Positions 5,578 through 48,433 of a stretch of DNA of 64,000 nt are shown here, piece after piece. How positions within the stretch are numbered: position 1 is the first letter of the stretch; every line of letters begins with the position of its first letter. Below the pieces are notes generated by a model, which worked only from the letters and a program-made list of their open reading frames with translations, was not told where the DNA came from and did not search any database. The position numbers were made by a program, and so were the translations under genes. Origin of the DNA: a virus. The DNA lies in IMG/VR virus record IMGVR_UViG_3300030098_006630, positions 33,176 through 97,175 of that record; one strand, 5' to 3'.

Positions 5578-5851
5578 ATATCTTTATAAATGTACAAACA
5601 CTGAGTGTGCTAAGGTGTTTGAAATTGTTCATTCTATGAAAGAAAAGCTAAAATCGTGCTCTGAATGTCTTGATGATTGTGACAAAGAATTCCCTCTAGA
5701 GAGATTACCAGCTCTATCTATCTCTATTTCTAAGCCATTATCACCTACACAAGATAAAAAAGCAGGTACATTAGTGAAAAAGAATATAGAAGAATTTAGA
5801 AAAGCCCTAAAAGAAGAACAACAGAAGCTGCGAGAGGTGGAATATAAATGA
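5570..5851 (+). CDS. FmdB-family zinc-ribbon protein
   Basis: MPKYLYKC....C...FEIVHSM......C..C pattern. GAGG lies immediately upstream and there is an ATGA overlap with the next gene. Confidence 0.7.
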   Translation: MPKYLYKCTNTECAKVFEIVHSMKEKLKSCSECLDDCDKEFPLERLPALSISISKPLSPTQDKKAGTLVKKNIEEFRKALKEEQQKLREVEYK

Positions 5852-44540: not shown

Positions 44541-44801
44541 ATGAAAATTACATCATCCCGACTTAAAGAAATTATTAAAGAAGAAGTTGAACTAGCCCTA
44601 AAGGAAGCCTGGAAAGGAGATCCTGAGATCGACCAAACCGGAGAATACGCAGATAAATCAAAAGAAGAGCTTTGTAAGATGCGAGATGATTTAAAGAAAA
44701 AAGAAAAACGAACCAAAGCCCAATCTAAAAAACTTAGACAAATAAATTTTGCTTTGCGTTCTAAACAAAAAGGACCCAAGTTTGGAAAGGTAGATTGTTA
44801 A
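44541..44801 (+). CDS. Small putative internal head protein with an MKIT..RLKEIIKEE leader
   Basis: N-terminal motif shared with 44802. GAGG SD and an upstream ACTATTTA motif. Confidence 0.6.
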   Translation: MKITSSRLKEIIKEEVELALKEAWKGDPEIDQTGEYADKSKEELCKMRDDLKKKEKRTKAQSKKLRQINFALRSKQKGPKFGKVDC

Positions 44802-44850
44802 ATGAAAATCACAAAACAGAGACTTAAAGAAATTATTAAAGAAGAAGTTG
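44560..44850 (+). repeat. 30-nt exact direct repeat GACTTAAAGAAATTATTAAAGAAGAAGTTG at 44560-44589 and 44821-44850
   Basis: Read directly from the sequence; encodes the (R)LKEIIKEEV leader in both genes. Confidence 0.95.
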
Positions 44851-45149
44851 TCAAAATCTTGGAAGGTAAAAAAACTAATGCCTCTGGAACCAAGGATAAA
44901 CAAGGCGGATGGCAAAGCGGCGTAATCGCTGAGCCGGTGTTCGAAGAAGAAGAACTAGATGAAACTTCTGCCATGGGCGGAACTCCTACAGGCGCAGTCG
45001 CGGGATATTCGGGACCCGTGAAGAAAGAAGAGAAGCTTTCTCCCAAACAAAGCAAAGAGATGGACACCGACAAGGACGGCGACATCGATGCAAAAGACTT
45101 AAAGACCCTTCGACTTAAAGAAGATGGCTGGGACGAGCCTATATCTTGA
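44802..45149 (+). CDS. Putative internal head protein with an MKIT..RLKEIIKEE leader and an EF-hand-like DTDKDGDIDAKD loop; may extend to 45242 by UGA recoding
   Basis: Shared leader and a DxDxDG loop. The frame stays open for 30 more codons after TGA 45147-45149, up to TAA at 45240-45242. Confidence 0.6.
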   Translation: MKITKQRLKEIIKEEVVKILEGKKTNASGTKDKQGGWQSGVIAEPVFEEEELDETSAMGGTPTGAVAGYSGPVKKEEKLSPKQSKEMDTDKDGDIDAKDLKTLRLKEDGWDEPIS

Positions 45150-45153
45150 CCTG

Positions 45154-45187
45154 ATGATCTTAAATGGCCAGGTAGGTCAGAAGACAT
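45154..45187 (+). promoter_or_regulatory. Candidate bacterial SECIS-like stem-loop downstream of the in-frame UGA
   Basis: Pairings ATG/CAT, TCTT/AAGA and TGGCC/GGTCA, with apical loop AGGTA starting 20 nt after the UGA. Alternative pairings also exist. Confidence 0.35.
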
Positions 45188-45246
45188 AAGAAAAGAAAAA
45201 GCTCGTAAAAAATCAAATCAGAAAAAGCCCAATAAAAAATAAACCC

Positions 45247-45274
45247 TTGATTAACTGCAAATAGTGTTTATAGT
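45247..45274 (+). promoter_or_regulatory. Sigma70-like promoter (TTGATT-N16-TATAGT) that would give a leaderless Mre11-Rad50 mRNA
   Basis: -35 at 45247-45252 and -10 at 45269-45274. ATG at 45281 lies 6 nt after the -10 box and has no SD. Confidence 0.55.
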
Positions 45275-45280
45275 ATACGC

Positions 45281-48200
45281 ATGAAAATTGCTCATATTAG
45301 TGATATTCATATTCGTAATTATCGTTATCATTACGAGTATGAACAAGTGTTTGAACAACTCTATACTAAACTTAAAGAGTTAAAACCAGACATCATTGTC
45401 AATACCGGCGATACAGCCCACACCAAACTAAATCTTAGCCCGTCTTATTTTGACATGGCTGCGAGGATGTTTGAGAAGTTGGCTGATATTGCTCCGTATC
45501 ATATTATCTTGGGTAACCACGATCTTAATCTTCGTAACCTTTCCAAGATTGATGCCGTTTCCCCCCTTGTTGCGGCACTCGACCACCCTAACATTCACTT
45601 TCACAAGTATTCTGCGGAAGTAGATGTTGGCGGTGGTATTTGTTTTCATGTCCTGTCTATTGTAGACGAAGAAAACTGGACACTTCCAACAGATATGGAT
45701 AAAGTACACATAGCTCTTTTCCACGGCTCTGTTGCTGGTGTTCAAACTTCTACTGGCTGGACAATGACCCACGGCGACATTAGCTTAGACCGCCTTACAG
45801 AATACGATTATGCCCTTCTTGGCGACATTCACAAGCCTAATCAAGAGTTAGATAAAGAAGGTCGTATTCGCTATGCTGGCTCTCTTGTCCAACAAAACTT
45901 TGGAGAATCAGAAGAAAAAGGATTTCTTCTTTGGGATATTAAAGATGCTGATACTTTTAAAGTAAAGCATCACGCCCTTGAAAACCCCAAGCCTTTTGTA
46001 ACTATCAATCTAACCAAAAAGGGAAAGATTCCCACAAAGGCACAAATTAAAGAAGGTTGTCGCCTTCGTTTGGTTTCTAGTGTTAATCTTCCGATAGATG
46101 TCATTAAACGTACCATTGACGTTGCGAAGACCAAATATAAGCCAGAAACAGTAAATTATTATTCTAATGTCTTCGGGAGAAAAGATAAGAATGAGATTAT
46201 CAATTCGGTTTTTAAAGATGACCTAAGAAGCTTAGAAGTTCAACAAGATCTCATAACTGATCATTTGATAGATTACGAACTTGAAGAAGACATGCTAAAT
46301 CAAATCTTCGACCTTAACCAGAAGTATAATAAACTTGTGACCGAAGAAGAAGAGGTAAGCCGCAATATCCACTGGTCAGTAAAAAACTTTGGATGGGATA
46401 ATCTGTTCAATTATGGTGAACAAAATTCTATTGATTTTGAGAAGTTAGAAGGAATTGTAGGTATTTTCGGTAAGAATTTCTCTGGCAAGTCTTCTATTAT
46501 TGATTCTTTATTATACACAATGTTCAACACGACTTCCAAGAATGAAAGAAAGAATCTGAATGTCATTAATCAAAACAAAGATAATGGTGCTGGAACGATT
46601 GAAATAGACATTGGAACGAACACTTATAGAATTGAACGTTCCAGCGAGAAATATGAAAAGAAACTTAAAGGAAATGTCTCTACCGAAGCACGCACAAATG
46701 TAGAGTTTACCAAAATAGATAACCTAACAGGAGAAGAAACGCCTCTTAATGGAGACACCCGAGCACAAACCGATAAAAACATTCGCTCTGTGTTTGGCTC
46801 AATAGATGATTTTCTTCTTACCTCGATGGGATCCCAGGTAGATTCTCTTGCTTATATCAACGAGGGTTCAACGAAAAGAAAAGAGATTCTTGCAAAGTTT
46901 CTTGACCTTGAAGTCTTTGAGAAGAAGTTTAAGAAAGCAAAGGATGACGCCGCTGATTTGCGCGTTGCCATCAAGAAAATGAAAGGAAGAGAATTTGGAA
47001 CTGAACTAAAAGAGAAAAGAAAAGAACTGGCTATTAATGAAGCAAAGATTGATGTAAGACGCAGAGAGTGTGATGAGCTAAAGAGGCAAGTAGTAGAATT
47101 TAGAGACTCTCTATCAGCCTTGCAGGAAAAAATCAACTCCATTCCTACGGAAGTCATTCAGATTAAAAATGTTTTAAAACAAATAAAAGACAAAAGCACA
47201 CAACTTGAAACTATTTCCAAAAAAGAAAAGCAATCTTTAGAAGAGATTGAGAGTAAGGTGGAGTTTATCCACAAGTTTGAAAAGTTTCAGAATATATTCA
47301 ACATTGATGACGCCACAGAGAAAAAAGAAAAAGCCGATGCTTTAATCAGCGAACTTGAAACTCTTGAAAAAGATATTGAGGTAACATCCTTAAAGTATCA
47401 AAATCAAGTGAAAAAGGTATCTCTTTTGAATGAAGTTCCCTGTGGCTCTGAATATTCGTCATGTAAGTTCATTAAAGACGCCTACAAGGCATCGGAAGTA
47501 ATAGAGAATACCAAGGTCGCCTTAAATGACTTAACTCTCTTAAAACGCCAAAAAACTGCTCATTTGGATGATTTAGAATATGAACAAAATAACGAGTATA
47601 TTGAGAAGTATAATAATGCGAAAGTAAAGAAGAATCAATACGAAAAAGAAATAAAAGATATTAAACTGGAAATTCAGAAAAACAAAACTGCAAGTTTAAA
47701 ACTCAACAATGAAATCAACGACTTAATTGAAAAAAGAGAAGAGTATGAAGAGCATAAAGAAGCTATTGAGAACTTAGAAACTCTCACGCAGGAAAAAAAG
47801 CGAATTGAAAAAATCATCACCACTAACGAAGCAGCTTGCGAGCGCTGCAACGAAGGGTTGTTAGAGCTTTATAAATCTAATGGCTTTCTAGAACAACAAT
47901 ACAAACAAATTGAAATTGAACAGAAAGAATGCGAGAATCTAAACACCAGTTATTCTGTCTATGATTTATACATGAAAGCGGTTCACTCTAACGGCATTCC
48001 GTCCAATCTTATTAATCGTAGCCTTCCTGTTATTAATCAGGAGATACAAAAGATTTTGTCTAATGTGGTAGATTTTGAGGTTATGTTCGAGAACGAAGAT
48101 ACAAAACTCGATATTTTGATTAAACATCCCAAGTATGATGCTCGCCCTATTGAGATGGGCTCTGGCGCTGAAAAGACAATTGCTGCGATGGCTATACGCC

Positions 48201-48433
48201 TAGCGTTGTTGAATGTTTCAACACTCCCAAAAGGAGATATTTTTATTCTTGACGAACCAGGGACAGCCCTAGATGAGGAAAATATGGAAGGTTTTATTCG
48301 TATTTTGGATATAATTAAGAGTGAGTTTAAAACAATTTTCCTTATTTCCCACCTAGAGGTCTTAAAAGACATTGTGGATAAACAAATAATCATTAACAAA
48401 GAAGATGGTTATGCTAAAGTAAATGAAAGTTAA
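45281..48433 (+). CDS. Fused Mre11/SbcD nuclease and Rad50/SbcC ATPase (T4 gp47 + gp46-like)
   Basis: Phosphoesterase motifs DIH, TGD, GNHD, FHG and GDIH; Walker A GKNFSGKS; long coiled coil with central Cys pair; GSGAE signature; Walker B FILDEP; ISH. Confidence 0.92.
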   Translation: MKIAHISDIHIRNYRYHYEYEQVFEQLYTKLKELKPDIIVNTGDTAHTKLNLSPSYFDMAARMFEKLADIAPYHIILGNHDLNLRNLSKIDAVSPLVAALDHPNIHFHKYSAEVDVGGGICFHVLSIVDEENWTLPTDMDKVHIALFHGSVAGVQTSTGWTMTHGDISLDRLTEYDYALLGDIHKPNQELDKEGRIRYAGSLVQQNFGESEEKGFLLWDIKDADTFKVKHHALENPKPFVTINLTKKGKIPTKAQIKEGCRLRLVSSVNLPIDVIKRTIDVAKTKYKPETVNYYSNVFGRKDKNEIINSVFKDDLRSLEVQQDLITDHLIDYELEEDMLNQIFDLNQKYNKLVTEEEEVSRNIHWSVKNFGWDNLFNYGEQNSIDFEKLEGIVGIFGKNFSGKSSIIDSLLYTMFNTTSKNERKNLNVINQNKDNGAGTIEIDIGTNTYRIERSSEKYEKKLKGNVSTEARTNVEFTKIDNLTGEETPLNGDTRAQTDKNIRSVFGSIDDFLLTSMGSQVDSLAYINEGSTKRKEILAKFLDLEVFEKKFKKAKDDAADLRVAIKKMKGREFGTELKEKRKELAINEAKIDVRRRECDELKRQVVEFRDSLSALQEKINSIPTEVIQIKNVLKQIKDKSTQLETISKKEKQSLEEIESKVEFIHKFEKFQNIFNIDDATEKKEKADALISELETLEKDIEVTSLKYQNQVKKVSLLNEVPCGSEYSSCKFIKDAYKASEVIENTKVALNDLTLLKRQKTAHLDDLEYEQNNEYIEKYNNAKVKKNQYEKEIKDIKLEIQKNKTASLKLNNEINDLIEKREEYEEHKEAIENLETLTQEKKRIEKIITTNEAACERCNEGLLELYKSNGFLEQQYKQIEIEQKECENLNTSYSVYDLYMKAVHSNGIPSNLINRSLPVINQEIQKILSNVVDFEVMFENEDTKLDILIKHPKYDARPIEMGSGAEKTIAAMAIRLALLNVSTLPKGDIFILDEPGTALDEENMEGFIRILDIIKSEFKTIFLISHLEVLKDIVDKQIIINKEDGYAKVNES

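Follow-up and report, generated by a model that had tools for sequence, protein, structure and literature searches.

Comparison of sequences from independent marine assemblies indicates that a small gene in the genome of a T4-like phage contains a site of programmed UGA recoding, and not a nonsense mutation or a sequencing error. Judged from the same comparison, this site belongs to a single-copy, movable translational recoding unit of marine T4-like phages, which occurs in two gene contexts. Protein sequence is conserved on both sides of the UGA, and ribosomes must therefore sometimes read through it. As for the decoder, we favor, with middling confidence, a leaky near-cognate tRNA over the insertion of selenocysteine (Sec).

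The stretch of DNA analyzed here (the window, 64,000 nt) comes from a 97-kb IMG/VR contig that is about 54% complete. PHROG matches (baseplate wedge, TerL, portal) mark the phage as a T4-like myovirus, and the closest cultured TerL proteins, those of Flavobacterium phage immuto and Microcystis phage Mel-JY01, are 43-45% identical. Two complete relatives measure ~185 kb each. Searches of cultured-phage DNA and proteins with the gene and its region returned no match, and a pattern scan of GTDB genomes gave 14 matches, all of them chance matches in high-GC genomes, with no prophage and no host clue. Shine-Dalgarno-like motifs precede 40 of 72 genes. The gene and its surroundings comprise the following features:

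44541 to 44801, plus strand: upstream paralogue of 86 aa, which has an N-terminal motif in common with the next gene (MKITSSRLKEIIKEEV) and is without the recoding unit
44802 to 45149, plus strand: small ORF of 115 aa with the N-terminal motif MKITKQRLKEIIKEEV, ending at the recoded TGA
45126 to 45146, plus strand: heptapeptide directly 5' of the UGA, G-W-D-E-P-I-S in the window, consensus G-[WF]-[YD]-E-P-H-[ILV]
45147 to 45149, plus strand: in-frame TGA with C as the next base, both unchanged throughout the family
45150 to 45242, plus strand: read-through tail of 30 codons plus TAA, PDDLKWPGRSED and then a basic stretch
45247 to 45283, plus strand: putative sigma-70-like promoter TTGATT-16-TATAGT (motif at 45247-45274), the 3' boundary of the unit in the window

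The gene is located in the interval between primase and SbcCD. Beyond the TGA its frame stays open for 30 codons (PDDLKWPGRSEDIRKEKARKKSNQKKPNKK) up to the TAA at 45240-45242, as the original prediction had it, and the tail indeed ends 4 nt before the promoter motif, and 6 nt separate the end of this motif from the ATG at 45281, where a fused SbcD-SbcC gene starts (45281-48433; Pfam Metallophos and SMC_N). The promoter call comes from a consensus scan only, which found 2 sites where 2.1 were expected; the sequence of this region is conserved in four relatives (L001-L003 and L012). Logan contigs from four sequencing runs that include RNA libraries end at ~45033 and resume at 45167 or 45245, none of them spanning the TGA. 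Against Pfam and PHROG, the 115-aa protein gave only a sub-threshold EF-hand loop at residues 85-103, and none of the proteins that carry the unit matched a family of known function. As to the earlier description of the protein as capsid-targeted, our data speak neither for nor against it.

A protein-guided scan retrieved orthologues with the common N-terminal motif, two contigs among them having the same TGA and tail as well. A degenerate pattern for P-D-[DE]-L-K-W-P-G, in which the preceding codon was left free, was then run against viral and metagenome collections. All 16 distinct sequences with the right context (from IMG/VR, TARA, JGI and ENA assemblies) had TGA at this codon, the other matches to the pattern being unrelated chance matches, and so did two further variant copies (P-D-E-L-D-W-P-G-G-S-E-N). 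Altogether TGA-C was found in 18/18 distinct DNA copies from independent marine assemblies, each of them having a tail that is open and conserved. When 5 related genomes, 2 of them complete, were searched with a profile of the 38-residue unit, each gave exactly one copy with one TGA inside.

The two lineages that carry the unit are well separated, their primases being 50% identical and their orthologous proteins averaging ~53%. Ordinary TGA stops turn over at this divergence, with TGA kept in 4/16 orthologues (G001 versus G005) and in 3/9 (G000 versus G005), whereas the TGA-C of the unit is the same throughout. The 18 independent copies from two lineages thus exclude a sequencing error as well as a recent nonsense mutation, the caveats listed in the original prediction, and the comparison indicates that both the identity of the stop and its context are kept beyond neutral expectation. 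No homologue of the unit had TAA or TAG at this position, none had TGG in readable DNA, and the 30 downstream codons are conserved, so that the original prediction stood up to these of its own refuting tests. We also screened across the genomes for other conserved in-frame TGAs; the screen was swamped by off-frame and antisense shadows, and on the coding strand it returned only this unit and ordinary gene junctions.

Elsewhere in these phages TGA is an ordinary stop. It ends 18/86 crude gene calls in the window genome, and 46/188 and 42/208 in the two complete relatives, and ORFs of up to 2448 aa in the window genome contain no TGA, in line with the earlier statement that there is no genome-wide recoding. 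The tRNAs encoded by the phages are for Thr, Arg, Met, Asn, Leu, Ser, Pro and Ile only, and a tmRNA is present in all of them. No suppressor tRNA, including tRNA(UCA), is encoded by these phages, and no tRNA-Sec, SelA or SelB was found in the five phage genomes. Decoding of the UGA therefore depends on the host. Genome-wide reassignment of TGA (codes 4, 25) and recoding by a phage suppressor were both rejected, TGA being an ordinary stop and tRNA(UCA) absent.

That the UGA is passed can be seen from selection on the protein. The alignment of the unit (123 nt) has no gaps. Over the 27 codons after the TGA, entropy by codon position is 8.5/4.8/20.9, and the first 12 of these codons vary almost only at third positions (dN/dS 0.046/0.815). 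In the sense frame, dN/dS over the tail is 0.19, and 0.06 when further sequences are included. For the other five frames the ratio is 0.3-3.1, with stops in 5-12 of 12 sequences over the tail and in 12/12 over the module; both remaining sense frames and two antisense ones have ratios of ~1-3 and stops in every sequence compared. Switches between Leu CTN and TTA and between Arg CGN and AGA are synonymous in the sense frame only.

Upstream of the UGA, dN/dS is 0.26 for the family. In the heptapeptide, E and P are invariant but third codon positions vary, and all four Pro codons occur. The copy in the window is the most diverged and yet constrained, with dN/dS of 0.25 in the tail and 0.11 upstream when compared to its closest relative (L022). 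Since the downstream codons are under purifying selection in the sense frame, the UGA must be decoded at some level. That part of the original prediction, which had proposed Sec insertion or readthrough, thus stands, while the proposal of Sec specifically fares less well, as described below.

The conserved unit reads G-[WF]-[YD]-E-P-H-[ILV], UGA, P-D-E-L-[KD]-W-P-G-G-S-E-V and then a basic K-K-Q-K-x-R-K-K-A-N-x-x-K-P; the family consensus of the tail is PDELKWPGGSEV-(V/I)KKQKxRKKANxxKP. The unit spans 38 codons (~115 nt), 27-30 codons of which lie past the UGA. AlphaFold2 predicted coil for residues 1-19 and a basic helix for residues 20-35 (pLDDT ~78); mean pLDDT was 69.6, with no fold usable as a search query.

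In the lineage of the window, the unit forms the C-terminus of small proteins in the interval between primase and SbcCD, and its tail ends with TAA. The body of these proteins is highly variable (87-204 aa). In the second lineage TAG closes the orthologue of the window gene, which is without the unit; there the unit constitutes a 13-codon mini-ORF, for example M-K-N-N-K-Q-G-W-Y-E-P-H-L. The ATG of the mini-ORF overlaps the stop of the upstream gene (TAATG), so that the mini-ORF is translationally coupled to that gene, and its tail, which has no stop, runs in frame straight into the ATG of the next gene. The tail had been regarded as filling an unexplained gap in a packed genome; it is rather part of a movable unit that elsewhere runs into the next gene.

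Folding of the RNA that follows the UGA gave three elements:

45165 to 45179, plus strand: hairpin H1, made of UGGCC (45165-45169), the loop AGGUA (45170-45174) and GGUCA (45175-45179), from the RNAalifold consensus and per-sequence folds
45154 to 45187, plus strand: possible lower stem around H1, AUGA (45154-45157) with ACAU (45184-45187), from RNAalifold
45147 to 45179, plus strand: competing helix H2, UGACCU (45147-45152) with AGGUCA (45174-45179), from the folds, with the UGA itself inside

The fold described at the outset (AUG/CAU, UCUU/AAGA, UGGCC/GGUCA, loop AGGUA) is what ViennaRNA returns for the window RNA as the fold of minimum energy, and the competing helix UGACCU/AGGUCA that had been pointed out exists as well. 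The loop of H1 begins 20 nt past the UGA and has a G at its second position. Its stem is invariant in the 18 copies except for one A-to-G change that preserves a U-G pair. Two synonymous sites in the 3' arm are frozen, at a rare Gly GGG (10% usage) and at Ser TCA (15%), unlike eight other four-fold sites in the same sequences, which vary. In the K-to-D variants, the change from AAA to GAC gains a C-G pair for the hairpin.

In the lower stem one pair shows the types U-A, C-G and U-G, and 3/4 pairs form in the window. The covariation proposed as a check on the hairpin was not significant for H1 with the lower stem, the observed score being reached by 61/500 shuffles, because the H1 stems never vary beyond the change noted above. 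For H2, five pairs never vary and the sixth pairs in 9/15 distinct sequences, and covariation was again not significant (169/500 shuffles reach the score). The 3' arm of H1 pairs equally well with the UGACC that holds the stop.

The hairpin with its weak lower stem satisfies published criteria for bacterial SECIS elements (loop of 3-9 nt, stem of 4-16 bp, G in loop position 1-2, spacing of 16-37 nt, MFE <= -7.5 kcal/mol; PMC13188914) in 14/16 copies. An approximation of these criteria was also passed by 66 of 400 random TGAs of the window genome (16.5%). Fold energies are unremarkable (z-scores from +0.2 to -2.0), and a search against Rfam in E-value mode gave noise only (E > 2).

Weighing the evidence on the decoder, we rank leaky readthrough first and Sec second. 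Under the first explanation, most ribosomes would probably stop at the UGA, and a fraction would go on after an ordinary near-cognate tRNA, in all likelihood tRNA-Trp, had read the codon. In the window this would yield a minor isoform of 146 aa, whose acidic aromatic end would acquire the full pattern W-x5-W-x5-W ahead of a basic helix; in the second lineage, readthrough from the 13-codon mini-ORF would lengthen the next protein at its N-terminus. Readthrough may be made more frequent by the weakness of the UGA-C context, by the small hairpin that follows and perhaps by the nascent peptide, and the long form would be a functional product of low abundance.

In favor of near-cognate reading are a TGA that is invariant in 18 copies although the search pattern left the codon free, the free turnover of ordinary TGA stops at the same divergence, and a tail that is coding in the sense frame only. 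Such reading also agrees with the single copy in each of five genomes, with the different contexts in the two lineages, with the coupling of the mini-ORF through TAATG and with the C that follows the UGA in every copy. Poole et al. (1995) reportedly found UGA-C to be the weakest RF2 signal in E. coli. Such a context, however, also ends ordinary genes (10/42 TGA stops in G005), so that context alone cannot make a stop very leaky, and we know of no established mechanism of structure-stimulated readthrough in bacteria.

Reading the UGA as Trp places W at positions -6, 0 and +6 and adds to a repeated W-P (xWPDELK / WPGGSE), a periodicity that was spotted post hoc. Decoding of UGA by tRNA-Trp(CCA) is a documented mechanism (PMC13092985). 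Among 1.84 billion representatives and in a 5.8-billion-cluster word index, no homologue with Cys or another sense codon was found, and the only full-length matches carry W, although W in database proteins is indistinguishable from gene calls made with code 4. Four proteins that span the site (P0001, P0003, P0007, P0008), from short ENA contigs of 569-754 nt, carry W at the UGA position. The cluster of one W-bearing protein includes identical members of 105 aa that end right before the W, and for another the DNA of relatives shows TGA, which makes code-4 gene calls the most likely source of these W residues. The mini-ORF also weighs against near-cognate reading: its short product has only 13 aa, which leaves the rare long form as the only plausible functional product and suits an efficient decoder such as SelB at least equally.

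The explanation ranked second, which we consider unlikely but the best of the alternatives to leaky readthrough, is that SelB and tRNA-Sec of the host read the UGA, with UGGCC-AGGUR-GGUCA as the SECIS element, making a selenopeptide of ~40 residues on varied carriers. The SECIS loop of E. coli fdhF resembles the AGGU(G/A) loop of the unit hairpin. In favor of Sec insertion, the UGA is strictly conserved and coding continues past it, the 3' arm of H1 is frozen at synonymous sites where eight other four-fold sites vary, the AAA-to-GAC change gains a C-G pair, and the mini-ORF leaves the long product as the only plausible functional one; the published SECIS criteria are satisfied in 14/16 copies. 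The Sec trait occurs in some abundant marine bacteria, for example Actinomarina, but SAR11, as one marine example, is without selC (doi 10.64898/2026.04.03.716425).

A Cys homologue exists for nearly all selenoproteins (PMC13188914), yet neither a profile search of 1.84 billion representatives nor a 5.8-billion-cluster word index yielded Cys at the UGA position; the alternation of TGA with Cys that had been suggested as a sign of Sec was not found. As had been cautioned at the start, there is no redox motif (CxxU, UxxC, TxxU or similar) around the site. The context is E-P-H-x-UGA-P-D-E, the unit contains no Cys and offers no Cys, Ser or Thr partner motif, and its predicted coil and basic helix make no fold. 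Moreover, 16.5% of random TGAs pass the approximated SECIS criteria, the stems are invariant, with covariation that is not significant, the 3' arm pairs equally well with the UGA, and fold energies are not unusual. The five phage genomes are without tRNA-Sec, SelA and SelB and have no other conserved in-frame TGA on the coding strand. Sec as originally put forward is thus not supported, with no Cys homologue in these searches, no redox motif and frequent SECIS-like hits among random TGAs. A phage selenopeptide cassette of ~40 residues with one Sec (E-P-H-x-U-P-D-E), a minimal SECIS element and no Cys relatives, moved between carriers, is a doubtful proposal.

Next in the ranking is a peptide-mediated gate, which we regard as quite improbable. 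Here the G-W-Y-E-P-H-x peptide would act in the exit tunnel at UGA-C, in a TnaC-like manner, slowing RF2, and the gate or sensor (of RF2 activity, of charged tRNA-Trp or of rescue by the phage tmRNA) would set the flow of ribosomes into the tail and the next gene. The residues directly before the UGA persist even in the 13-codon ORF, whose translation is coupled to that of the preceding gene and whose frame leads on into the following one, the UGA-C is invariant, and all these phages have a tmRNA. Pure regulation, however, leaves the strong protein-level selection on the 27 downstream codons unexplained, and we know of no experimental precedent for stalling by this peptide. A regulatory stop also overlaps with the readthrough model rather than excluding readthrough.

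A host that efficiently decodes UGA as a standard amino acid in some contexts, by a tRNA-Trp with a 4-bp anticodon stem or through a weak RF2, is very unlikely. It would have a precedent in tRNA-Trp(CCA) variants with a 4-bp anticodon stem, which are found across diverse bacteria and can read UGA when in E. coli (PMC13092985), and it would fit the W-x5-W-x5-W pattern. Against such a host, TGA closes 20-25% of the genes of three phage genomes, very long ORFs contain none, the distance to a back-up stop is not clearly shorter after TGA than after TAA, and no TGG variant was seen in DNA.

That there is no recoding at all, the TGA reflecting a recent nonsense mutation, a sequencing error, a conserved non-coding element or an antisense gene, is barely credible: an antisense ORF of 129 aa (44798-45187) does share wobble positions with the sense frame in the window and has a dN/dS of 0.32 over the tail, but TGA is found in 18/18 independent copies, the sense frame has the lowest dN/dS and the synonymous six-fold switches of Leu and Arg, no Rfam family matches, and the antisense gene was rejected because its frame has stops in 12/12 sequences across the module. 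A +1 or -1 frameshift, hopping and internal initiation were likewise rejected, because the frame is identical on both sides, the codon before the UGA varies and the tail has no conserved start codon.

Our full-text literature searches found no description of a phage selenoprotein or of a conserved UGA readthrough signal in tailed phages. To our knowledge, programmed stop recoding in bacteria and DNA phages is known almost only as cellular Sec insertion and as the leaky UGA of the RNA phage Q-beta. With Trp as the residue inserted, the unit would represent a readthrough signal conserved among tailed phages, and with Sec a phage selenoprotein without Cys relatives. Being compact and self-contained (~115 nt), present once per genome in widespread ocean phages and moved between genes, it makes a natural cassette for testing what lets a bacterial ribosome pass a UGA. 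Since gene callers truncate at the UGA or use code 4, products of this kind are missing or mislabeled in viral protein catalogues.

Several known systems share features with the unit. The RF2 (prfB) site CUU-UGA-C has the same poor RF2 signal, UGA-C, but the unit has no slippery codon, and its codon before the UGA varies (GTT, ATT, TCT, ATA, TTA, CTA). Past the UGA it is the zero frame that is conserved, and the unit, unlike prfB, is therefore not a frameshift. Stalling of the TnaC type likewise involves a conserved nascent peptide acting at a UGA stop. We know of no demonstrated bacterial equivalent of the structure-stimulated readthrough of alphaviruses and MuLV. In these eukaryotic RNA viruses a weak UGA-C is likewise combined with a conserved nearby 3' structure, such as the MuLV pseudoknot, but theirs is a eukaryotic ribosome and release-factor system (PMC13517186).

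Bacterial selenoprotein genes, such as E. coli fdhF, resemble the unit in their conserved in-frame UGA with continued coding and in a small hairpin whose loop starts 20 nt past the UGA and has a G at the second position (PMC13188914). The unit differs in having no Cys homologue, redox motif, fold or phage Sec machinery, and in a hairpin of only 5-6 bp without covariation. In the A1 read-through coat protein of Q-beta, too, a phage gene ends with UGA, and insertion of Trp by near-cognate decoding in a minority of cases gives a functional minor isoform extended at its C-terminus. Here, by contrast, the phage is a ~185-kb dsDNA T4-like phage, the predicted extension has only 27-30 residues, and the stop of the unit is preceded by a conserved peptide and followed by a small hairpin that is likewise conserved. 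Unlike the A1 site, the unit has changed its carrier gene, and what it would lengthen in one lineage is the N-terminus of the protein encoded next.

Around the recoding unit of the window (the conserved peptide, the invariant in-frame TGA-C and the conserved tail), the following features were mapped:

44541-44590 and 44802-44851: copies of the DNA encoding a repeated M-K-I-T motif
45054-45110 (residues 85-103 of the ORF at 44802-45149): one EF-hand-like loop of the calcium-binding type, D-T-D-K-D-G-D-I-D-A-K-D
45247-45283: sigma-70-like promoter, TTGATT-16-TATAGT
45281-48433: SbcD-SbcC fusion, one 1050-aa polypeptide

The EF-hand-like loop, which lies directly upstream of the recoding unit and is common to the window ORF and its closest relative, L022, scored 17.6 bits, under the Pfam cut-off of 25.9. 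In one relative (L001 3231-3540, genome G004) the orthologue has lost the unit, and this contig is only 33% complete, so that a copy may lie elsewhere in that genome. The orthologue ends in P-V-K-E-Q TGA CCG GAC CTC GAT CGC TAG, apparently a vestige of TGA-CCN-GAY.

In two independent marine DNA runs, Logan contigs are broken on both sides of the unit, over the stretch 45034-45166, ending at about 45031-45033 and restarting at 45167 or 45245; these breaks may be due to strain-level variation or to sequence common to several phages. The M-K-I-T-x3-L-K-x-I-I-K-E-E motif forms the N-terminus of 3-4 small proteins per genome (further copies at 5669 in G000, the window's own genome; 71214, 125621, 126336 and 147934 in the related phage G001; 21762, 105612 and 164219 in the related phage G005). 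Its coding DNA, about 50 nt, is itself repeated, has several-fold raised contig depth in metagenomes and is the branch point of many metagenome contigs.

The downstream gene fuses SbcD, a Mre11-like phosphoesterase, to SbcC, a Rad50-like SMC ATPase. Since its promoter ends 6 nt upstream of the ATG and no Shine-Dalgarno sequence precedes this codon, the arrangement suggests a leaderless mRNA; the same promoter-to-ATG layout is kept in four relatives (L001-L003 and L012).

These phages (G000, G001 and G005) also encode a tmRNA, found at:

G000:C1:12237-12659, outside the window
L057 1094-1576, on DNA of a relative
L096 4567-4878, on DNA of a relative

The tag peptides are ANDNVVNDYALAA in G000, ANDNVELNYAQAA in G001 and ANDNVTFDYALAA in G005, and a tRNA-Thr(TGT) immediately follows the tmRNA in G000 and G001. 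Whereas the tmRNAs of published marine myophages (pelagimyophages and Melnitz; PMC9004378) are two-piece, those described here are one-piece.
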